A DNA stretch of 49,462 nucleotides from a virus (IMGVR_UViG_3300010365_001407:1-49462), one strand, 5' to 3'. Positions 15,174 through 48,403 are shown, numbered from the stretch's first letter. Made by a program: numbers and translations. Notes: generated from the sequence alone by a model not told the origin.

Positions 15174-15836
15174 TTATTTTAACCATTTTCTAATAGAATT
15201 ATCACTAACTCCATATTTTCTACCTGTACCACTATATCCAAACTCTAAAATATCTATATTTAATTGTTCTAAACTTGGTCTTTCTACTTTTCTTCTACTA
15301 TATTTTTCACACTTATTACATTTTTCAGAAATGTTTGTTATAATACAACCACATTTACAATAGTTTACTTTTTTATTTTTTAAGTTTTTACCAGCAAATG
15401 TATCTAAACCAGCATTACAATTAGGACATACTATTCTTAAATTTTCTATTCTATTATCATCATGTATACCATTTTTATGGTCTATAATTAATGATATTTT
15501 CATTCCATTCCAATTTTCATCTTGTCCACATAAACAACATTTTCTTTCTAATAATCCTTCATCATATAATCTCTTTTTAAGATGTCCTCTATTATATGAT
15601 GATTTTTCTACTAATATATCTGATAAATCTATTTTATTATATTTATTCAAATTAATCATTTTTTCATAATTATGAGAAAAATGTTTTGTGTCTATATCAT
15701 ACAAATCAATATACTTCTTTAATGTCTTTGAATTGCCACCTGATGATCTTATTCCCATTTTCTCTAAACACTCTTTTTGAGTTTTAGACTTTCTAACAAC
15801 TTCTTCTAAATTTTCTTTTAACCAAATGTTTTTCAT
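15174..15836 (-). CDS. HNH homing endonuclease inside tRNA array 1
   Basis: CCLCG...IDHKNG...DNRIENLRIVCPNCNA; C-terminal HTH-like GVSDNSIRKWL; stop codon abuts tRNA-Pro. Confidence 0.9.
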   Translation of the reverse strand: MKNIWLKENLEEVVRKSKTQKECLEKMGIRSSGGNSKTLKKYIDLYDIDTKHFSHNYEKMINLNKYNKIDLSDILVEKSSYNRGHLKKRLYDEGLLERKCCLCGQDENWNGMKISLIIDHKNGIHDDNRIENLRIVCPNCNAGLDTFAGKNLKNKKVNYCKCGCIITNISEKCNKCEKYSRRKVERPSLEQLNIDILEFGYSGTGRKYGVSDNSIRKWLK

Positions 15837-16269: not shown

Positions 16270-16306
16270 AAAAAAAAATCTCATAAGAACTAACTTATGA
16301 GATTTT
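16270..16306 (-). terminator. attenuator terminator upstream of tRNA array 1
   Basis: Minus strand AAAATCTCATAAG-TTAGTT-CTTATGAGATTTT plus U tract, between leader ORF and first tRNA. Confidence 0.85.
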
Positions 16307-16327
16307 ATATTTTTACATTGTAATTTC

Positions 16328-16396
16328 TTAATGTGATATAAATACATAGTTAGTCTGGTTCGTGATACGATCCTGATCCTGCATCGGCTGCGGCAT
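16328..16396 (-). CDS. leader peptide 1 MPQPMQDQDRITNQTNYVFISH
   Basis: ATG CCG CAG CCG ATG CAG GAT CAG GAT...CAT TAA; first 9 residues are only M/P/Q/D, matching array-1 tRNAs. Confidence 0.75.
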   Translation of the reverse strand: MPQPMQDQDRITNQTNYVFISH

Positions 16397-16431
16397 AACT
16401 ACTATATTTTTATATCACATTTTCATAATAC

Positions 16432-22013: not shown

Positions 22014-22883
22014 ATGAAATATTATGTATATGCTTATTTAGACTCAAAATTAGAAGAAAATATATCATTTGATGATATTATCTTCACACATAGACCTATT
22101 TATATAGGAAAAGGTAAAAACAATAGAATGTTTACACACCTCAATGATAGGAAAAGGTATAAGTATTATTTTTATAATAAATTAAATAAAATGATTTTAG
22201 AAGAGAATATACCATTAATAGTAAAGTTAAGAGAGTTTGAAAATGAGGAAGATGCTATTAATTTAGAAATTAAACTAATAGATTATTTAGGTAGAAAGAA
22301 ATCAGGTGGTTTATTATATAATATGACTGATGGTGGTGATGGTGTATCTGGTTATGTATATACTGATGAAGCTAAAGAAAAAATGAGTAAAAAGGCAATT
22401 GAGAACAAAAACCATATAAGATTACAAAGTTATTGGAATAAAAATACTATATTATCAGGTGAAAATCATCCTATGTTTGGTAAAAAACATAAACAATCAT
22501 CTATTGATAAAATGATTGAAAGTAGAACAGGTACTAAACAGAGTGAAGAGTGGATTGAAAAAAGAGCTGCTAAGTTAAGAGGAATTCCACTATCACAAGA
22601 ACATAGAGATAAATTAGCAGAGGTAAATAGAGGTAAGTTAGTTTCAGATGAAACAAGACAAAAACAATCAATTGCAAGACTTGGTAAAGAACCTCACAAT
22701 AAAGGTAAAATAAAGGATATTATTTTACAAATTGATTCTAATGGTATTATAGTAAAAGAATGGAATAACCTAAATGAATTGATTGATTATGGCTTTCAAA
22801 AGAGTAATGTTATAAATGTTTGTACAGGTAAAAGGAAATCACATGGTGGATTTATATGGAAATATAAATCAGACTATAATTAG
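22014..22883 (+). CDS. GIY-YIG homing endonuclease with NUMOD3-like repeats and NUMOD1
   Basis: YVYAY...IYIGKG..NR, YNMTDGGDG, GENHPMFGKKH, NVINVCTGKRKSHGGFIWKY. Confidence 0.88.
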   Translation: MKYYVYAYLDSKLEENISFDDIIFTHRPIYIGKGKNNRMFTHLNDRKRYKYYFYNKLNKMILEENIPLIVKLREFENEEDAINLEIKLIDYLGRKKSGGLLYNMTDGGDGVSGYVYTDEAKEKMSKKAIENKNHIRLQSYWNKNTILSGENHPMFGKKHKQSSIDKMIESRTGTKQSEEWIEKRAAKLRGIPLSQEHRDKLAEVNRGKLVSDETRQKQSIARLGKEPHNKGKIKDIILQIDSNGIIVKEWNNLNELIDYGFQKSNVINVCTGKRKSHGGFIWKYKSDYN

Positions 22884-23743: not shown

Positions 23744-23752
23744 ATATTTTAG

Positions 23753-23840
23753 AGGTATAGGTAGGATTTGAACCTACGATGATGAAATTAATCATTACAG
23801 TTTTGCAGACTGCACCTTTCGACCACTCAGGCACTATACC
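23753..23840 (-). tRNA. tRNA-Cys (GCA) with long variable arm
   Basis: GCAGT-CTGCAAA-ACTGT; about 19-nt variable region; U73. Confidence 0.82.
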
Positions 23841-24002: not shown

Positions 24003-24581
24003 CTATTTTATTTCTAAAAGATTTTCATGTATTTCTCTATGACAATTTGCACATACTAAAATACACTTATCTAATTCATCTTTAATCTTATCCCAAGCTG
24101 TACACATATTTTTAGATAGTGTAAAATCTTTTTTAGAGGGATCCAAATGGTGAAACTCTAATGCGGATACACACTTATTATATTCACATATAACACATTT
24201 ACCACCTTTATATTCTACTGCTTTTTCTTTTGTTCTTTTTCTAAATGTTTTTGTTCTTATATAGTTAGACTTTCTTCTATCATCATCACTATCAAATGTA
24301 AACTTTTTATTCTCACCATATTTGGTAACGGTACTTCTACCTACACCAAATTCCTTCATTGTTTCCTCTATAGAATTTAGTTTATAAAATTCTTTCAATT
24401 TTTCAATTTCATCTTTATCTAACTTTTTACCAGAATTAAGACCTATATCATTTAACATTTCACTCTTACAAAAGTAAGAAATTAAACTTCTAGAACAATT
24501 TAATTCTTTTTGTATTTCTCTATAGCTTTTACCTTGTTTTCTTAGTAAAATTATATTTTCTTTTTTAGAACCTTCAACCAT
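24003..24581 (-). CDS. HNH homing endonuclease inside tRNA array 2
   Basis: N-terminal HTH; CVICEY...LEFHHLDP...CILVCANCHREIH. Confidence 0.9.
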   Translation of the reverse strand: MVEGSKKENIILLRKQGKSYREIQKELNCSRSLISYFCKSEMLNDIGLNSGKKLDKDEIEKLKEFYKLNSIEETMKEFGVGRSTVTKYGENKKFTFDSDDDRRKSNYIRTKTFRKRTKEKAVEYKGGKCVICEYNKCVSALEFHHLDPSKKDFTLSKNMCTAWDKIKDELDKCILVCANCHREIHENLLEIK

Positions 24582-24870: not shown

Positions 24871-24876
24871 ATTTAG

Positions 24877-24957
24877 TTGGCACAGAGGGATTTGAACCCA
24901 CATTTTCAACAACCATTTACAGTTCTCCAACTTATCAGGTTGGGCTGGTATGTGCCA
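24877..24957 (-). tRNA. D-armless tRNA-Ile-like (GAT) with very long variable region
   Basis: TGGCACA/TGTGCCA acceptor; only TACCAGC before CCAAC-CTGATAA-GTTGG; 25-nt region before the T arm. Confidence 0.6.
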
Positions 24958-24962
24958 ATATG

Positions 24963-25049
24963 CTACTGGGGTGGGATTCGAACCCACGGTGGAGCAGTGC
25001 TCATCAGATTAACAGTCTGAACCGTTCGACCAACTACGGCAACCCAGTA
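24963..25049 (-). tRNA. tRNA-Asn (GTT) with long variable arm
   Basis: TCAGA-CTGTTAA-TCTGA; variable hairpin GAGC-ACT-GCTC; G73. Confidence 0.82.
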
Positions 25050-26487: not shown

Positions 26488-26568
26488 TACCCCAGATAGG
26501 ATTCGAACCTATATTTTCAGTTTCCAATTACCCGTAGTTGTTTAGAAGACAACTGGGACTACTGAGGC
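26488..26568 (-). tRNA. D-armless tRNA-Arg-like (TCT) with very long variable region
   Basis: GCCTCAG/CTGGGGT acceptor; GTTGT-CTTCTAA-ACAAC; T arm ATAGG-TTCGAAT-CCTAT; same 81-nt layout as 24877..24957. Confidence 0.6.
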
Positions 26569-27324
26569 ATATTTTAACCATTTTCTTATAGAGTTATCAC
26601 TAACTCCATATTTTCTACCTGTTCCACAATATCCTAATTCTTTAATATCTATTTCTAATTGTTCAATTGATGGTCTTTCTTTTATTCTTAGTGATTTAGT
26701 ATGACATGTATTACAATTTTTTGATGTCTTTTTTATTTGTTTACCACAAGAACAAATATTTTTAATTTTTAATTTTTTAACTTTTATTTTTTTAACTTCT
26801 TCTAATTCACTTCTATTCAAATATTTCTCATTTCTATATTCTGATTTACTACTTTTATTTAGGTTACCACCACAATATGTAGATGTTTGACTATGACAAT
26901 TTGGACACAATATTCTTAAATTATCTATTCTATTATCCATATTATTACCATTTATATGGTCTAAATGAAATGATAGTGGTTTACCACACCAGCTTTCTAT
27001 ATTACATAATTCACATTTACTATCTTTTAATCCCTCTTTTATTAATCTAATTTTAAGATGATGTGTACTTGTATAAGTAGAGTTCTCAACCAAAATATCT
27101 GATATATCTGTTATTTTATTAACAGGTTTATATCTCAAACCAGTATTCCAACCTTGTCCTGTAAAGTGTGATATATCTATATCATATAAATTAATATACT
27201 TTTTTATTGTCTTATAATTACCACCTGCTGGCCTAATTTCTAATCTTCTACAAACTTCTGCAGTGGATAAAACCTCCTTTACTATTTTTTCCAACTCTTC
27301 TTTATCAATCTTATACTTACTCAT
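26542..27324 (-). CDS. HNH homing endonuclease inside tRNA array 3
   Basis: CELCN...HLDHINGNNMDNRIDNLRILCPNCHSQT; paralogue of 15174..15836; C-terminus overlaps the tRNA at 26488..26568. Confidence 0.9.
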   Translation of the reverse strand: MSKYKIDKEELEKIVKEVLSTAEVCRRLEIRPAGGNYKTIKKYINLYDIDISHFTGQGWNTGLRYKPVNKITDISDILVENSTYTSTHHLKIRLIKEGLKDSKCELCNIESWCGKPLSFHLDHINGNNMDNRIDNLRILCPNCHSQTSTYCGGNLNKSSKSEYRNEKYLNRSELEEVKKIKVKKLKIKNICSCGKQIKKTSKNCNTCHTKSLRIKERPSIEQLEIDIKELGYCGTGRKYGVSDNSIRKWLKYASVVPVVF

Positions 27325-39091: not shown

Positions 39092-39997
39092 ATGAGATTA
39101 CCAAATGGATACTGGACTAAAGAAAGATGTATGGAAGAAGTAAAAAAATATACCACAAAGAAAGATTTTTATACTTTATCAAAAAGTGCATATCAATCAG
39201 CATATCACAATGGTTGGTTATCAGAAATAACTGAAAGGTTGGAAGGTATTAAAATGAATTTTTTCATTCATAAGGAAAATTGTATAGAAGAAGCATTGAA
39301 ATATAAAACAATTACTGAATTTATAAAAAAATCACCTGGTGCATACAAATCGGCATCTAAAAATGGTTGGATAGATGAAATAACAGGTCATATGACACAT
39401 ATGGGAGATAAATATAAAAGATGTATATATAGTTATGAATTTGATGATAATAGTGTCTATATTGGTCTTACTTACAATTTAGAGAAAAGAGATACATTAC
39501 ACAAATCAAATTTAAAGAGTACAGTTAATATACATATTAATAAGACAGGAATTGTACCTAAGTTGGTTAAATTGACTGATTATATAGATGTAGAAGAAGC
39601 AATAAAAATGGAATTCTATTTTTTGAATAGGTATAAAAATAATGGTTATATCATTTTAAATAAAGTGAAAACTGGAGGTCTTGGTAGAGAAAATAAATGG
39701 ACTAAGGAAAATTGTCTTGAATTGGCTCTAAAATGTGAAACTCTTAAAGATTTTTATGAAAAATATGAAGGTGCATATACTAAATCTATAAAAGAAGGGT
39801 GGTTAAATTTATTTACACACTTAAAGATAAGTAAATTACCAAATGGTTATTGGACTAAGGAAAAATGTCTTGAAGAATCATTAAAGTATAAAAGTAAGAA
39901 AGATTTTAGGATAAATAGTAAATCTGCTTATTCTTCTGCCACAAAAAATAAATGGTTAGATGAAATCTGTATTCATTATAACCTAAAAATTATTTAA
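39092..39997 (+). CDS. GIY-YIG homing endonuclease with WTKE.C.E.A.KY repeats
   Basis: CIYSY...VYIGLT...KR...E motif flanked by four helical repeats; TAATATATA at 39079-39087. Confidence 0.8.
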   Translation: MRLPNGYWTKERCMEEVKKYTTKKDFYTLSKSAYQSAYHNGWLSEITERLEGIKMNFFIHKENCIEEALKYKTITEFIKKSPGAYKSASKNGWIDEITGHMTHMGDKYKRCIYSYEFDDNSVYIGLTYNLEKRDTLHKSNLKSTVNIHINKTGIVPKLVKLTDYIDVEEAIKMEFYFLNRYKNNGYIILNKVKTGGLGRENKWTKENCLELALKCETLKDFYEKYEGAYTKSIKEGWLNLFTHLKISKLPNGYWTKEKCLEESLKYKSKKDFRINSKSAYSSATKNKWLDEICIHYNLKII

Positions 39998-44317: not shown

Positions 44318-45111
44318 ACTATTAAATATTTTTTATCAAAGGTTTCAATCCTTTGTAGTAATTCTATTATAGAAATAGAAGAAGTTTTGTTTTTTGACAC
44401 ATTTTCATTGTGTATCATTAACTTACAATTAGCAGGATGTGATAATAATTTTGGATCAATCCCTTGTTCAAATCCTTCTTTAATAGAAAACATATGGTCT
44501 CTACTAACTCCACCTAAATTATTCTTCTTATTTGATGGTGAATACCATCCATATTTCTCAATTAATGTAAAGTCAAATTCATCAGGATAATCATTTAAAC
44601 TAAATTTAAAATTACAATCTGTTCTGTAACATTGTAATACATCTTTATCTTTTCTTTTGAACTCTTTTTGACAAATATCAGAACAAAATTTTCTTCTCCT
44701 GTTCTCAAAACTTATTTTACCTTGGCAAAACTTACATTCTTTTGGATTTTCATCATAATTATTATTAGTATGTTTAAAATTTATTGATGCTGATTGTCTA
44801 TACTTTATTAAACTTTCTTCAGTTATGTTATATTTTAAACCCTTTCTGTTTATATTAATTACTTTTTTACTACAATCTTTAGAACAGTATAAATTTTCTC
44901 TATATTCATAGGGTATATCATTATTACATTCTTCTAATTTACATTTTTTTGGAATATATTTTTCTTTGTAACTATTTTTTACACCTTCTATATTTTTTGA
45001 GTAATCTCTTAAATATTTATTAACATAATAGTTTCTACAAGATAAAGAGCAATATAATTTTTTACCTATTACTTCATTATTACAATCAATATTTTTACAG
45101 TTCATAACCAC
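44314..45111 (-). CDS. HNH-type homing endonuclease at the 3' end of tRNA array 4
   Basis: Repeated YCS..C zinc motifs; VSRDHMFS...HPANCKLM..NEN. Confidence 0.75.
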   Translation of the reverse strand: MVMNCKNIDCNNEVIGKKLYCSLSCRNYYVNKYLRDYSKNIEGVKNSYKEKYIPKKCKLEECNNDIPYEYRENLYCSKDCSKKVININRKGLKYNITEESLIKYRQSASINFKHTNNNYDENPKECKFCQGKISFENRRRKFCSDICQKEFKRKDKDVLQCYRTDCNFKFSLNDYPDEFDFTLIEKYGWYSPSNKKNNLGGVSRDHMFSIKEGFEQGIDPKLLSHPANCKLMIHNENVSKNKTSSISIIELLQRIETFDKKYLIV

Positions 45112-45155
45112 TTTTTATTTTTATATATAAAAAGTGGAGAACTCCCTTTTTGAAT

Positions 45156-45232
45156 TGGTGGAGACGGTGGAAATCGAATCCACCTCAGAAACCTTGCAAG
45201 GGTTTCTCGCCAGCCTTGGTACATGCGTCCCC
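45156..45232 (-). tRNA. tRNA-Ala (TGC), CCA encoded
   Basis: G3:U70 pair, AAACC-CTTGCAA-GGTTT, ends ACCA. Confidence 0.9.
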
Positions 45233-45243
45233 ATTAATTTTAG

Positions 45244-45332
45244 AGCGAGTTGTGGGATTTGAACCCACGATGTGAACCTTATCTGACTGATTTGGAAGAC
45301 CAGTGCCATCGACCGAACTAGGCAAAACTCGC
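45244..45332 (-). tRNA. tRNA-Gly (TCC) with long variable region
   Basis: CTGGT-CTTCCAA-ATCAG; 18-nt variable region; U73. Confidence 0.8.
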
Positions 45333-45407
45333 ATTATTTCCTATGGTTTTAACTATAACTTATATACTTTTCAGTAGAAAGAGGTTATAATCTACACCAT
45401 TTATGTG

Positions 45408-45480
45408 AGCGAAAGACGGGACTCGAACCCGCAACAACCTGCTTGGAAGGCAGGAGCTCTACCAATTGAGCTACTTTCGC
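45408..45480 (-). tRNA. tRNA-Gly (TCC)
   Basis: Canonical, CCTGC-CTTCCAA-GCAGG, U73. Confidence 0.94.
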
Positions 45481-45558
45481 ATATAAGGTGACTGAACTCT
45501 TAAATAATCAACTCGCGATTATCATATCTAAGTTTCTATTAATTCTATACATCATTAC

Positions 45559-45630
45559 TTGGTCTGGGTAGGATTCGAACCTACGTTTCCTGTTACATAC
45601 AGGCGTCCTCACCACTAGACGATCCAGATT
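45559..45630 (-). pseudogene. degenerate tRNA-like element
   Basis: CGTC/GACG D stem and GTAGG-TTCGAAT-CCTAC T arm; 5-nt loop ATGTA; only 5-bp acceptor. Confidence 0.45.
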
Positions 45631-45674
45631 GCTAACTTTATATAAAATTAAATCACCTACCGGTTTTTTAATTG

Positions 45675-45748
45675 TTGGCAAGGTGGGTAACGATCCCACT
45701 CTCTCATGTGTATAAGACATACGCTTTTACCGTCTAAGCTACTTGCCA
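45675..45748 (-). tRNA. tRNA-Ile (TAT)
   Basis: TATGT-CTTATAC-ACATG; A73; T loop ATCGTTA. Confidence 0.85.
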
Positions 45749-45759
45749 ATATTATTTTG

Positions 45760-45833
45760 TAGTCTATACGGGATTCGAACCCGTGTCTTACCCGTGAAAG
45801 GGGCACGTCCTGACCTGACTAGACGAATAGACC
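45760..45833 (-). tRNA. tRNA-Glu (TTC)
   Basis: TGCCC-CTTTCAC-GGGTA; CGTC/GACG D stem. Confidence 0.92.
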
Positions 45834-45842
45834 ATATTTTTG

Positions 45843-45914
45843 TACTATTGACGGGGGTCGAACCCGCATCTCCCACCCTGAGAAGGTGGTTTCCTGCCAT
45901 TAGAAGACAATAGT
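45843..45914 (-). tRNA. tRNA-Glu (CTC)
   Basis: CCACC-TTCTCAG-GGTGG; body shared with 46054 and 46133 copies. Confidence 0.85.
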
Positions 45915-45920
45915 ATTTTG

Positions 45921-45988
45921 TGGGATGTGAGAGACTCGAACTCTCCTGCTAGCGTTTTACAGACACGGCTATCACCATAATCCATCCC
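45921..45988 (-). tRNA. degenerate tRNA-Tyr-like (GTA), reduced D arm
   Basis: GGGATG/CATCCC acceptor, CT-GTA-AA loop, T arm GAGAG-TTCGAGT-CTCTC. Confidence 0.5.
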
Positions 45989-46053
45989 AATTAGATATAT
46001 CATTTACACGGTGTTAGGTCTTACTATCCTGTTATAACTTATTTATATCTTTG

Positions 46054-46125
46054 TACTATTGACGGGACTCGAACCCGCATCTCCCGGTTTGAAAAACCAG
46101 TTTCCTGCCATTAGAAGACAATAGT
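46054..46125 (-). tRNA. tRNA-Glu (TTC)
   Basis: CTGGT-TTTTCAA-ACCGG. Confidence 0.88.
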
Positions 46126-46132
46126 GTTTTTG

Positions 46133-46204
46133 TACTAGTGACGGGACTCGAACCCGCATCTTCCGGTTTGAAAAACCAGCTTCCTGCCATTAGAAGACAC
46201 TAGC
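46133..46204 (-). tRNA. tRNA-Glu (TTC)
   Basis: Near-copy of 46054..46125 with compensatory acceptor changes. Confidence 0.88.
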
Positions 46205-46212
46205 ATATTTTG

Positions 46213-46295
46213 TGGGTGTAGTAGGACTCGAACCTACTCAGCTAATAGCAACGGTGTTACAGACCGCCATGACTCTCCAACTTCATCGTACACCC
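46213..46295 (-). tRNA. tRNA-Tyr (GTA)
   Basis: GCGGT-CTGTAAC-ACCGT, variable arm, A73. Confidence 0.9.
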
Positions 46296-46308
46296 TTATG
46301 TACTTTTG

Positions 46309-46391
46309 TGGGCAGAGAGGGATTCGAACCCCCGAACTCTAATGAGAGCAGTTTTACAGACTGCCAGCTTTAACCACTTGCATATCTACCC
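46309..46391 (-). tRNA. tRNA-Tyr (GTA)
   Basis: GCAGT-CTGTAAA-ACTGC, variable arm, A73. Confidence 0.93.
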
Positions 46392-46404
46392 AATTTATTT
46401 CAAT

Positions 46405-46439
46405 AAAAAAACCCAATCTGTTTTTGCCAGATTGGGTTT
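46405..46439 (-). terminator. attenuator terminator upstream of tRNA array 4
   Basis: Minus strand AAACCCAATCTG-GCAAAAA-CAGATTGGGTTT-TTTT. Confidence 0.87.
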
Positions 46440-46464
46440 GTTGTTTTATAATGTTTTTACTCCA

Positions 46465-46566
46465 TTACTTTATACACATAACGCTTCTGACCGATGGTAT
46501 TCTATACCCCGCCTCATATCCGCCTATCGCTTCTATTGCTATTGTTATGTTAGTAATTGTTGTCAT
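46465..46566 (-). CDS. leader peptide 4 MTTITNITIAIEAIGGYEAGYRIPSVRSVMCIK
   Basis: 33-aa ORF; residues 9-21 are only I(ATA)/A/E/G/Y, matching array-4 tRNAs; 6 of 7 Ile codons are ATA. Confidence 0.85.
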   Translation of the reverse strand: MTTITNITIAIEAIGGYEAGYRIPSVRSVMCIK

Positions 46567-46617
46567 TTTTTCTATTTTTTTAAATGTTTGTTGTTGTTTT
46601 GTTTTCTAATTCTTCTA

Positions 46618-46625
46618 CAAAAGTA
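46618..46625 (-). promoter_or_regulatory. host-type -7 box (TACTTTTG) for array 4, with TTTG about 20 nt upstream
   Basis: Matches the Bacteroidota primary-sigma consensus TTTG-N19-21-TAnnTTTG. Confidence 0.7.
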
Positions 46626-46676
46626 AGGTGACTTTTTTAATCTACCAAATCTTTTTGTAATTATTTTTAATCTTTG

Positions 46677-46749
46677 TAGCGGGAACAGGACTCGAACCTG
46701 TGACCTCAAGGTTATGAGCCTTGCGAGCTGCCTACTGCTCTATCCCGCG
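46677..46749 (-). tRNA. initiator-type tRNA-fMet (CAT)
   Basis: CGCGGGA 5' strand with C1:U72 mismatch; CAAGG-CTCATAA-CCTTG. Confidence 0.88.
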
Positions 46750-46783
46750 ATATATTGTTTTGTGAGACTATCTCTCAACTTTG

Positions 46784-46854
46784 TAGCGTAGCGTGGATTC
46801 GAACCACCCCTTGGAGTTTATGAGACTCTAATGCAACCTTTACACTTTAACGCG
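46784..46854 (-). tRNA. divergent fMet-like tRNA (CAT)
   Basis: CGCGT start with 1:72 mismatch; CT-CAT-AA loop; weaker acceptor stem. Confidence 0.65.
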
Positions 46855-46872
46855 ATATATGTTTTATAGTTC

Positions 46873-46881
46873 TATATATTA
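46873..46881 (-). promoter_or_regulatory. late-type TAATATATA promoter for the fMet pair
   Basis: Motif recurrence; 19 nt upstream of tRNA. Confidence 0.6.
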
Positions 46882-46919
46882 AAAAGTTTTTCCCCTTTTT
46901 GATATTTCTGAACATTTTT

Positions 46920-47492
46920 TTAAATTTTTTTCAATATTTCATCAATTTCTTGTTTAGATTTCTCTAAATCAACATTTTCTATTACAAAATCTGCTAATTT
47001 GGCTTTATCTTCATCAGACCATTGAGATCTTATTCTTTTAAGAACATCTTCTTTATTAGTATTATCTCTACTAATAACTCTTTCAACTCTTACATCTTCT
47101 GGTGCAGTTACTAAAATTGTTACATCACAATCTTTATAAGCACCACTTTCAAATAATATTGCAGCTTCTTTAACTACAAATGGTTTATCAAATTGTTTAG
47201 TCCAATTAATAAAGTGTTCTCTAACTTTAGGATGGACAATCTCATTTAACTTTTTGAGATTGTCCTCATTCCCAAAGACAAAAGAAGCTAACTTCTTTTT
47301 ATCTACCAAATTATTTTCTAAAATATTTTCACTAAAAGTATCAGTTAGTTCTTTTATCACTTCTGGTGTATCAAGTAACTTCTTGGCTTCATCATCTGCA
47401 ATATAGACAGGAATACCCAAAGACTCAATATACTTTGTTATGGTAGTTTTTCCTGATCCAATACCCCCAGTGATTCCCAATATGTATTTCAT
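46920..47492 (-). CDS. coaE: dephospho-CoA kinase
   Basis: LGITGGIGSGKT, ADDEAK, LNEIVHP, KEAAILFE, R...Q motifs. Confidence 0.92.
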   Translation of the reverse strand: MKYILGITGGIGSGKTTITKYIESLGIPVYIADDEAKKLLDTPEVIKELTDTFSENILENNLVDKKKLASFVFGNEDNLKKLNEIVHPKVREHFINWTKQFDKPFVVKEAAILFESGAYKDCDVTILVTAPEDVRVERVISRDNTNKEDVLKRIRSQWSDEDKAKLADFVIENVDLEKSKQEIDEILKKI

Positions 47493-47587: not shown

Positions 47588-48403
47588 ATGGTAAAAACAT
47601 TTATTTATGTATTAAAAGATCCAATATCTAATGAAGTTAGATATGTTGGTAAATCAAATAATCCAAATAAAAGATTTTCTAGTCATTTGGATACAAGTAA
47701 AGATATAGGAACACACAAAAGAAATTGGATAAATAAACTATTGTCTGATAATCAAAAACCAATATTGGAAATTATTGATGAAGTAGATATTGATAATTGG
47801 TCATATTATGAAAAGAAGTATATAGATTATTACATCAATAAAGGATGTAATCTTGTAAACTGTGGTTTAGGTGGTGAGGGTTTAACATATGGTAATCAAA
47901 CTTCCTTTAAGAAGGGACATAACACTAAAAAGATTGTTCTTTTTGATAAAAATGGTATTTTAACTAATATTTCAGATTCTATAAAAGATGCAGAAAAGTT
48001 TATTGGTAAAAGAGGTGTATCATCTGTACTTAGTGGTAAAACTAAAAAGTGTGGTGGGTATATTTGTGTATATGAAAATGACTATCTAAAAATGTCAAGT
48101 ATAGAATTATGTAATTTAATAGAATTTTCTAATCTAAATAATGGATTGGATAATGGAAAAAAAACAAGATTTGTTAAAAATACTAAGCCTTGGAATACAG
48201 GTAAAAAGTATGAGTCCTTTAAAAAAAGAAAGGTAGTATATCAATATGATAAAATAACAAAAAAACTAATAAAAGAATGGAGTGGTATTATTGAAATATC
48301 TAATGAGTTAGGACTTGATTATAAATCAATAAATAATAATTTAAGAAATAAAAGTAAAAGTTCTTGTGGGTTTATATGGAGTTATGAAAAAAGACCTACT
48401 TAA
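47588..48403 (+). CDS. GIY-YIG homing endonuclease with NUMOD1
   Basis: FIYVL..P....VRYVGKSNN..KR; GGEG; C-terminal SSCGFIWSY; TAATATATA at 47560-47568. Confidence 0.88.
   Translation: MVKTFIYVLKDPISNEVRYVGKSNNPNKRFSSHLDTSKDIGTHKRNWINKLLSDNQKPILEIIDEVDIDNWSYYEKKYIDYYINKGCNLVNCGLGGEGLTYGNQTSFKKGHNTKKIVLFDKNGILTNISDSIKDAEKFIGKRGVSSVLSGKTKKCGGYICVYENDYLKMSSIELCNLIEFSNLNNGLDNGKKTRFVKNTKPWNTGKKYESFKKRKVVYQYDKITKKLIKEWSGIIEISNELGLDYKSINNNLRNKSKSSCGFIWSYEKRPT

Follow-up and report, generated by a model that had tools for sequence, protein, structure and literature searches.

We here describe a stretch of viral DNA of 49,462 nucleotides (nt; IMGVR_UViG_3300010365_001407:1-49462), referred to as the window and numbered from its first letter, and in it a short open reading frame (ORF) and a terminator hairpin that precede the fourth of its transfer RNA (tRNA) gene arrays. 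The window belongs to a viral contig of 113,462 base pairs (bp) with 27.3% guanine plus cytosine (GC) and 47 tRNAs called by ARAGORN; the estimated completeness of approximately 15% makes this contig a fragment of a very large phage. In the window, 38 tRNA genes are grouped in four arrays (ARAGORN, with Rfam in agreement), and each of these, like a fifth array outside the window, is arranged alike, with a promoter box, a short ORF and a terminator ahead of the tRNAs. The features of cassette 4, all on the minus strand, make it likely, from sequence comparison and modelled folds, that a ribosome-mediated (leader-peptide) transcription attenuator controls array 4, the tRNAs of which would then probably be made only when ribosomes run short of them.

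Results

The leader ORF of cassette 4 (46566..46465, from the ORF list) starts with ATG, has 33 codons followed by TAA and is predicted to encode MTTITNITIAIEAIGGYEAGYRIPSVRSVMCIK. Its first seven codons (46546..46566) form a constant N-terminal module, M-x-T-I-T-N-I, the identical 21-mer of which heads approximately 45 loci; within the module lies region 1 (ACAUAAC, 46550-46544), which can pair with GUUAUGU. Codons 8-21 (46504..46545), here called the sensor, read ACA ATA GCA ATA GAA GCG ATA GGC GGA TAT GAG GCG GGG TAT, and residues 9-21 are IAIEAIGGYEAGY. As in known leader-peptide attenuators, a short predicted ORF with an ATG start and a plausible initiation region lies between promoter and genes, and its regulatory codons match the product of the genes to be regulated. 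The plus-strand ORFs 46306-46626 and 46424-46609 were rejected as spurious, being antisense to tRNA and leader.

Array 4 (45156..46391) holds approximately 12 genes, identified by ARAGORN and Rfam together with two uncalled elements conserved in relatives. Their order is Tyr, Tyr, Glu, Glu, a Tyr-like element, Glu(CTC), Glu, Ile(TAT), Thr(TGT), Gly, Gly and an Ala(UGC)-like element, the ARAGORN calls being Tyr(gta) twice, Glu(ttc) three times, Glu(ctc), Ile(tat), Thr(tgt) and Gly(tcc) twice. The anticodons of this array read all 14 sensor amino acids and 13 of the 14 sensor codons. A first-pass annotation of the window had stated that residues 9-21 are limited to array-4 amino acids, and this holds for the whole of codons 8-21, with alanine resting on a non-canonical tRNA-Ala(UGC)-like element (45232-45156). 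No Ala tRNA is called in the array 4 of the window by either ARAGORN or the Rfam tRNA model. The element has a G3.U70 pair, a CUUGCAA anticodon loop, an odd D-arm and an encoded CCA; it resembles the Ala(tgc) that ARAGORN calls in one relative (L123) and scores 29.6 bits on the Rfam model of transfer-messenger RNA, under the cut-off of 47. The second uncalled element (45925-46000), tRNA-Tyr(GUA)-like with a long variable arm, is missed by ARAGORN and Rfam and is conserved. It was also seen in L001 at about 2836-2905, and it opens the array in phage LR745206.1 and several metagenome loci.

The same annotation was right that six of the seven Ile codons of leader 4 are ATA (codons 7, 9, 11, 14, 23 and 32, with ATT only at codon 4), that Ile(TAT) lies in array 4 and both Ile(gat) genes of the window in array 2 (ARAGORN), and that GAA (codon 12) and GAG (codon 18) both occur in the leader and match Glu(TTC) and Glu(CTC), both in array 4. 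The tRNA-Ile with anticodon UAU (45674..45748; ARAGORN, 58.8 bits on Rfam tRNA) was aligned with eight relatives. Compensatory changes are seen in its acceptor and anticodon stems, and the anticodon loop CUUAUAC/U is invariant. It has the predicted cloverleaf, the U34-A35-U36 in a 7-nt loop and the conservation expected of a genuine UAU tRNA-Ile.

Leaders match their own arrays and not others. We scored matching as the fraction of leader codons readable by an array's anticodons, and the true pairing of the five leaders with the five arrays ranks first among 120 permutations at both the amino-acid and the codon level. For codons 8-21 of leader 4, the score on the cognate array 4 is 1.00 by amino acid and 0.93 by codon, compared with at most 0.29 and 0-0.07, respectively, on the other arrays. 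Across 14 leader/array sets, with sensor limits partly set by hand, own-array scores are 0.86 (amino acid) and 0.78 (codon) versus 0.27 and 0.21 for cross pairings, and none of 100,000 permutations is as good.

Further cassettes were retrieved with the 21-mer that starts leader 4, an earlier 15-mer scan of viral contigs having been dropped for its more than 100 chance matches. The 21-mer retrieved 9 viral and 65 metagenome contigs, approximately 45 of which are leader-terminator-tRNA cassettes from freshwater, marine and other metagenomes. Their M-x-TITNI N terminus is nucleotide-identical (among loci L001-L184; for example, L124, L125, L009, L133 and L144), and the sensors behind it differ together with the arrays: ITIAIEAIGGYEAGY precedes tRNAs for Tyr, Glu, Ile(tat), Gly and Ala; IAYYYEGE precedes Glu, Tyr, Gly and Ala; IERREREE precedes Glu and Arg(tct); ILVVTLCLL precedes Cys, Val and Leu; and IHQLSHSRRLSS precedes Ser, His, Arg and Gln. 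One leader of 50 codons stands before a 16-tRNA array. Given that the 21-mer is common to cassettes with unrelated sensors, terminators and arrays, it appears to be a portable module that has been recombined with different sensors. The fifth cassette, outside the window (G000 C1 59391-59215, minus strand), consists of a leader beginning MRTNFKHTSFSKSFKWFSHKF..., a terminator and then a Lys/Phe/His/Trp/Ser/Arg array. A Cys-rich, homing-endonuclease-like ORF (59164-58700) sits between the fifth terminator and the first tRNA.

The frame of the leader ORF survives a 6-nt indel and holds across classes. Among members of the leader-4 class, the changes seen in sensor codons 8-21 are six synonymous ones (GCA->GCT, ATA->ATC, GCG->GCC, GCG->GCA, GGA->GGG and GAG->GAA), one in-frame 6-nt deletion and a single replacement, Thr->Ala, of which the array serves both amino acids. 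The tail (codons 22-33) shows at least 10 non-synonymous changes and one synonymous change (Fisher p about 0.0025, calculated by hand), and it is this difference in substitution pattern that argues that the sensor is constrained as codons and the tail only as RNA structure. Within the sensor, the rare G- or C-ending codons GCG, GGG and GGC (1%, 2.7% and 1.3% of their codon families) lie in hairpin H1 or in a small hairpin, and RNA structure would account for them better than sensing.

The fold of the 226-nt leader far surpasses those of its shuffles (z = -4.2, with none of 200 as good). A terminator scan places region 3 and an intrinsic terminator at 46402..46441, with a 12-bp stem that includes five G-C pairs, a 7-nt loop and U7; the stem-loop spans 46439-46409, the U-tract runs to 46402 and the hairpin energy is -17.3 kcal/mol. 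A spacer of 26 nt separates the leader ORF from the terminator. The first array-4 tRNA (tRNA-Tyr) begins 10 nt past the U-tract, so there is no room for an intervening promoter, and the terminator stands between ORF and genes as it does in attenuators.

Late in the ORF lies region 2, the 5' strand of the putative antiterminator (46476..46491). It consists of GUCAGA (46491-46486), which forms helix P1 with UCUGGC (46431-46426), and GUUAUGU (46482-46476), which enters either helix P2, with ACAAAC (46441-46436) as partner, or a 1:2 helix with region 1; both partners of the antiterminator are in region 3. Hairpin P3 (GUAAUG ... CAUUAU, 46448..46468), with the stop codon in its 5' arm, is predicted in every fold. 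Hairpin H1 (CGGGGUAU / AUACC-UCG, 46492..46511, codons 19-25) abuts P1; its pairs are kept in 14 of 14 sequences of the class consensus, and its loop is the hypervariable codon 22, which reads AGA, ACA, ACT, ATT, AAA or AAC.

When the transcript is truncated before the terminator 3' arm and a ribosome is placed on codons 9-21, it folds into an antiterminator made of P1, P2 and P3. P2 pairs GUU-UGU with ACAAAC at the base of the terminator 5' arm, and P1 and P2 together occupy 8 of the 12 nt of that arm. With assumed footprint sizes, a ribosome at the stop codon in the P3 5' arm has P2 within its footprint and P1 just behind it. The 1:2 helix, ACAUAAC:GUUAUGU, is found in the minimum free energy (MFE) fold of the untranslated state and in the class consensus, where it is kept in 14 of 14 sequences; it is of the classical type and, in these folds, would leave the terminator free to form.

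P1 is conserved in all 25 distinct sequences of the leader-4 lineage. Its first pair varies between G-C, G.U and A-U, and its second is U-A in 22 sequences, U.G in two (the window and L167) and C-G in one (L163). In L163 the encoded Val becomes Thr with pairing retained, which places the constraint on the RNA and not on the peptide. P3 is conserved in the 25 sequences too, with two pairs altered on both sides. For P1 and P3, 98.8% of alignment cells are paired versus 23-41% when the partners are slid, and six pairs in the P1/P3 alignment are changed on both sides, a number reached by none of 500 shuffles; these double-sided changes come mostly from one lineage. Every class carries, late in the ORF, a 6-10-bp copy of its own terminator's 3' arm (8-10 bp in the other classes), and this complementarity is kept between unrelated classes despite unrelated terminator sequences.

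The pairing of GTCAGA with TCTGGC was already part of the first-pass annotation, which called the antiterminator weaker and named folding and covariation across orthologues as a check. The coordinates of the two strands were right, and they are complementary with one G.U pair. The helix is indeed weak in the window, at -6.0 kcal/mol, but it is one helix of three and occurs in all 25 sequences, with covarying pairs on the terminator 5' arm, and the antiterminator, which forms in the constrained folds, is stronger than was thought.

No window match to the T-box family (RF00230) or to other Rfam cis-regulatory families reached the gathering score, and none was found at E <= 1 in 45050-46950. A MicC match (E = 0.23) was rejected, as it is the terminator hairpin resembling MicC by chance. 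Leader 1 (MPQPMQDQD..., 16275-16426, minus strand) is without the constant N-terminal module, and a simple duplex test found no antiterminator within its ORF (own energy -3.9, rank 15 of 16); hence its switch, if any, must be built differently.

Upstream of leader 4 lies a promoter-like box (46616..46649), a T(T/A)(T/A)GGTAGATTA element followed approximately 20 nt on by TACTTTTG, in agreement with TAnnTTTG, the -7 consensus of Bacteroidota. The box stands upstream of each of the five leader cassettes, as well as of one or more protein genes of the contig, and is kept in the relatives L001 and L002. A sigma-70 promoter scan of the window gave no enrichment, and neither did the two-box pattern TTTG-N17-21-TAnnTTTG (6 observed versus 3.8 expected in the window), so the promoter assignment rests on the box common to the five cassettes. 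Between box and ORF, the 5' untranslated leader (46567..46615) is A-rich, ends in AAAAAATG and is unpaired in MFE and centroid folds. A Shine-Dalgarno sequence was not seen in it, as expected under Bacteroidota-type initiation. Directly upstream of the promoter of leader 4 are two CAT-anticodon elements on the minus strand, one (46676-46749) with an initiator-like C1.U72 mismatch and the other (46784-46854) with only 24.9 bits on Rfam tRNA.

The genes around the arrays encode CoaE, a ClpB-like ATPase, DNA methylases and numerous HNH and GIY-YIG homing endonucleases, some of them within arrays, a neighbourhood that is typical of huge phages. Homing-endonuclease-type genes (HNH, helix-turn-helix and GIY-YIG/NUMOD) inside or beside tRNA arrays were found at 15174-15836, 24003-24581 and 26542-27324 on the minus strand and at 22014-22883, 39092-39997 and 47588-48403 on the plus strand; one splits each of arrays 1, 2 and 3. 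Three minus-strand tRNAs are 88-90 nt long, Gly(tcc) at 45243-45332, Ile(gat) at 24876-24965 and Cys(gca) at 23752-23840, with extra sequence after the anticodon arm that may represent introns or insertions. Downstream of array 4, a family search with ORFs 45111-44314 and 44317-44021 gave nothing informative. The nearest named relative with the same cassette is the uncultured phage LR745206.1 (634,780 bp); apart from it, the phage GenBank collection (blastn) shows similarity at the tRNA level only. M-x-TITNI leaders were sought across this 634-kb relative, and the orthologue alone was found.

Discussion

The attenuator reading of the first-pass annotation is well supported by array-specific matching, a conserved terminator, a covarying antiterminator and sensor change that, but for one Thr->Ala, is synonymous only. 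From this anatomy we infer that the ORF is translated, where transcription starts, what the kinetics are and in which direction the cassette responds, as follows. Transcription would begin at the conserved promoter-like box, with a ribosome then loading on the A-rich leader. Where aminoacyl-tRNA for sensor codons 8-20 (Thr-ACA, three Ile-AUA, Ala, Glu-GAA/GAG, Gly and Tyr) is scarce, the ribosome would stall and cover region 1, leaving region 2 (GUCAGA...GUUAUGU) free to pair with the terminator 5' arm as it emerges. P1 and P2, closed over P3, would then block the terminator, and RNA polymerase would read into the tRNA genes. With fast decoding, the ribosome would reach the stop codon in P3 and unwind P2 and P3, so that the 12-bp terminator forms; without a ribosome, region 1 would pair with region 2 and termination would win again. 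The products of the array would relieve the stall, giving negative feedback on tRNA supply.

Several observations weigh against this model. GGC is the one sensor codon without a cognate tRNA in array 4, and the partly hand-set sensor limits bear on the 14-set matching test. The P1 of the window has only 6 bp, one of them G.U, and its energy, even in the P1+P2 duplex (-9.6 kcal/mol), falls short of that of the terminator; hence the switch must be kinetic. Compared with unrelated terminator arms, the duplex energy of the window P1 ranks 6 of 16, which is not above chance. P2 is without conservation across classes, and the 1:2 helix, H1 and P2 are invariant within the class and thus beyond covariation. 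Finally, the avoidance of paired columns by variation (3 of 72 paired columns vary versus 44 of 94 others, p = 2e-10), which in itself speaks for the model, is partly circular as a test, given that the structure comes from the same alignment.

A separate question is whether the ATA codons are an evolved match to tRNA-Ile(UAU). AUA is read by lysidine tRNA-Ile2 or by a UAU tRNA and never by Ile(GAU). Consequently, the sensor ATA codons, if the attenuator works, report AUA-decoding capacity only, that is, host tRNA-Ile2 plus array-4 tRNA-Ile(UAU) and not the Ile(GAU) tRNAs of array 2, and it follows automatically that among the arrays only array 4 can relieve AUA stalls. This part of the codon-level match claimed at first pass stands; selection for ATA is only modestly supported. 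ATA makes up 44% of the Ile codons of this phage (3.9% of all codons), and at that background at least six of seven has P = 0.03.

It is possible, and on balance somewhat doubtful, that the attenuator is real and senses at the level of amino-acid families, with ATA arising from ordinary codon usage and from the constraints on codon 7, in the constant module and region 1, and codon 23, in the H1 stem. Codon 32 lies in the tail, which leaves 9, 11 and 14 as the only free sensor Ile codons, and for these three out of three ATA has P = 0.086 given the 44% background. Codon 11 has drifted to ATC in a subclade of five relatives (L018, L099, L120, L141 and L143) with Ile(tat) still in the array, and elsewhere in the sensor there is synonymous drift as well (GCA->GCT, GCG->GCC, GGA->GGG and GAG->GAA). 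In L139 and L177 the Ile sensor is retained and 3-4 kb of array contains no visible Ile(tat); in L001 and L068, Ile(tat) occurs behind sensors free of Ile codons. These points, which also count against our own codon-level interpretation, are set against three others. Arrays with Ile(gat) are preceded by leaders using ATT or ATC (leader 2 of the window, L125, L133 and L144) and arrays with Ile(tat) by leaders using ATA (Fisher on codons about 0.01, with few lineages phylogenetically independent). Among relatives, the Ile-rich sensor insertion tracks Ile(tat), which is carried by 8 of the 10 arrays that follow Ile-rich sensors versus 0 of 7 that follow the Ile-free AYYYEGE sensor. And whatever the history of selection, ATA is readable by AUA decoders only. 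Orthologues of leader 2, sought for the contrast of ATT and ATA, yielded one nearly identical copy only. Taken jointly (p about 0.01-0.03, with four exceptions), the evidence gives modest support to ATA as an evolved match to tRNA-Ile(UAU). The description of tRNA-Ile(TAT) as rare is correct for bacteria but not for this phage lineage, of which it is a conserved array member.

Bacteria decode AUA through lysidine made by TilS, and the first-pass annotation suggested that a UAU tRNA would bypass loss of TilS or tRNA-Ile2. A wider proposal is that tRNA-Ile(UAU) and the ATA sensor free the phage from host TilS/tRNA-Ile2 (after loss, depletion or cleavage) and that the cassettes are alarms against anticodon nucleases, which we consider unlikely. 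Tyr, Glu, Lys, Asn, Asp, Gln and His tRNAs, in which the arrays are rich, are the classic targets of such nucleases. In B. subtilis without tilS (PMC3919564) and in Mycoplasma mobile (PMC3575796), a UAU tRNA can stand in for the TilS system. No TilS-type domain was found on the contig, but this is uninformative, as the contig is approximately 15% of the genome. A stall sensor cannot separate depletion caused by defence from ordinary shortage. In a phage of 27% GC in which ATA is 3.9% of codons, simple codon supply accounts for an AUA decoder and is the simpler reading; TilS or tRNA-Ile2 bypass as the reason for the phage tRNA is speculation and is not required.

The cassettes might answer mainly to amino-acid starvation or global translation capacity, tuning tRNA output to host physiology. 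Leader-peptide attenuators read the filling rate of the A site, which depends on charging as well as on the amount of tRNA (Elf and Ehrenberg, PMC1183508). However, starvation for amino acids is not relieved by extra tRNA, which would leave array-specific sensors purposeless, and the one-to-one tracking of sensor and tRNA gene content points to tRNA supply as the regulated variable; we therefore regard this explanation as quite improbable. That the small ORF is untranslated or non-regulatory, its peptide resemblance incidental and the hairpin a constitutive leaky terminator or processing signal insulating the array, is very improbable: an open frame of 33 codons is no great rarity in DNA of 27% GC (approximately 5% by estimate) and the window P1 is not above chance by energy, but in all five cassettes and approximately 45 related loci the match is to the cognate array alone, indels leave the frame intact, sensor change is synonymous (six versus one replacement), the antiterminator covaries and there is no promoter space between terminator and tRNA.

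Among known systems, the cassette is most readily compared with the trpL, hisL, leuL, thrL and ilvGMEDA leaders of enterobacteria, which share with it a promoter, regulatory codons clustered in a short ORF, 1:2, 2:3 and 3:4 helices that exclude one another, an intrinsic terminator and a stall that favours the antiterminator; the ilv and thr leaders also sense several amino acids together. Unlike these leaders, the phage cassette controls tRNA genes and not biosynthetic enzymes, so that the tRNA itself would close the loop; its sensor mixes six amino acids; and it is modular, with a constant N terminus and an exchangeable sensor and terminator repeated before each array. The pheST attenuator (pheM) and T-boxes likewise use terminator/antiterminator control of translation components by tRNA or amino-acid state, but pheM controls a synthetase and not tRNA genes, and T-boxes bind uncharged tRNA directly, without an ORF. 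As in M. mobile and the B. subtilis tilS-deletion suppressors (PMC3575796, PMC3919564), a gene-encoded UAU anticodon would read AUA without lysidine, whereas here the UAU tRNA is phage-encoded and conserved in the Tyr/Glu/Gly array of a huge-phage lineage. The arrays resemble those of T4-like, T5-like and huge phages in clustering tRNAs for codons heavily used by an AT-rich phage (ATA, at 44% of Ile, AGA and TTA) and in their interspersed homing endonuclease genes. Other phage arrays are usually treated as constitutive or temporal; each array here stands behind its own putative demand sensor.

Leader-peptide attenuation is textbook for amino-acid operons, and the mechanism proposed here is this known one on a new target, tRNA genes, in modular form. 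In our full-text literature search, no paper connected tRNA genes or the tRNA arrays of phages with leader peptides or attenuation, and no report described a tRNA product closing the loop. The joint reading, a demand-driven tRNA supply in huge phages through a portable cassette before each array that permits transcription only during stalls, with AUA decoding freed from TilS-dependent tRNA-Ile2 and possibly an alarm that refills pools cut by anticodon nucleases, is put forward tentatively, the balance tipping slightly against the combination as a whole. As a rule for annotation, the make-up of an array can be predicted from the leader peptide ahead of it, non-canonical tRNAs overlooked by standard programs included. 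If the attenuator reading is true, it would explain how tRNA synthesis is kept from being wasteful or unbalanced in phages that carry dozens of tRNA genes. The cassettes would also be natural, modular and codon-specific sensors of tRNA availability, of use in synthetic biology, and the leader peptide would be a readable record of the decoding steps that are limiting in the host, AUA among them here.

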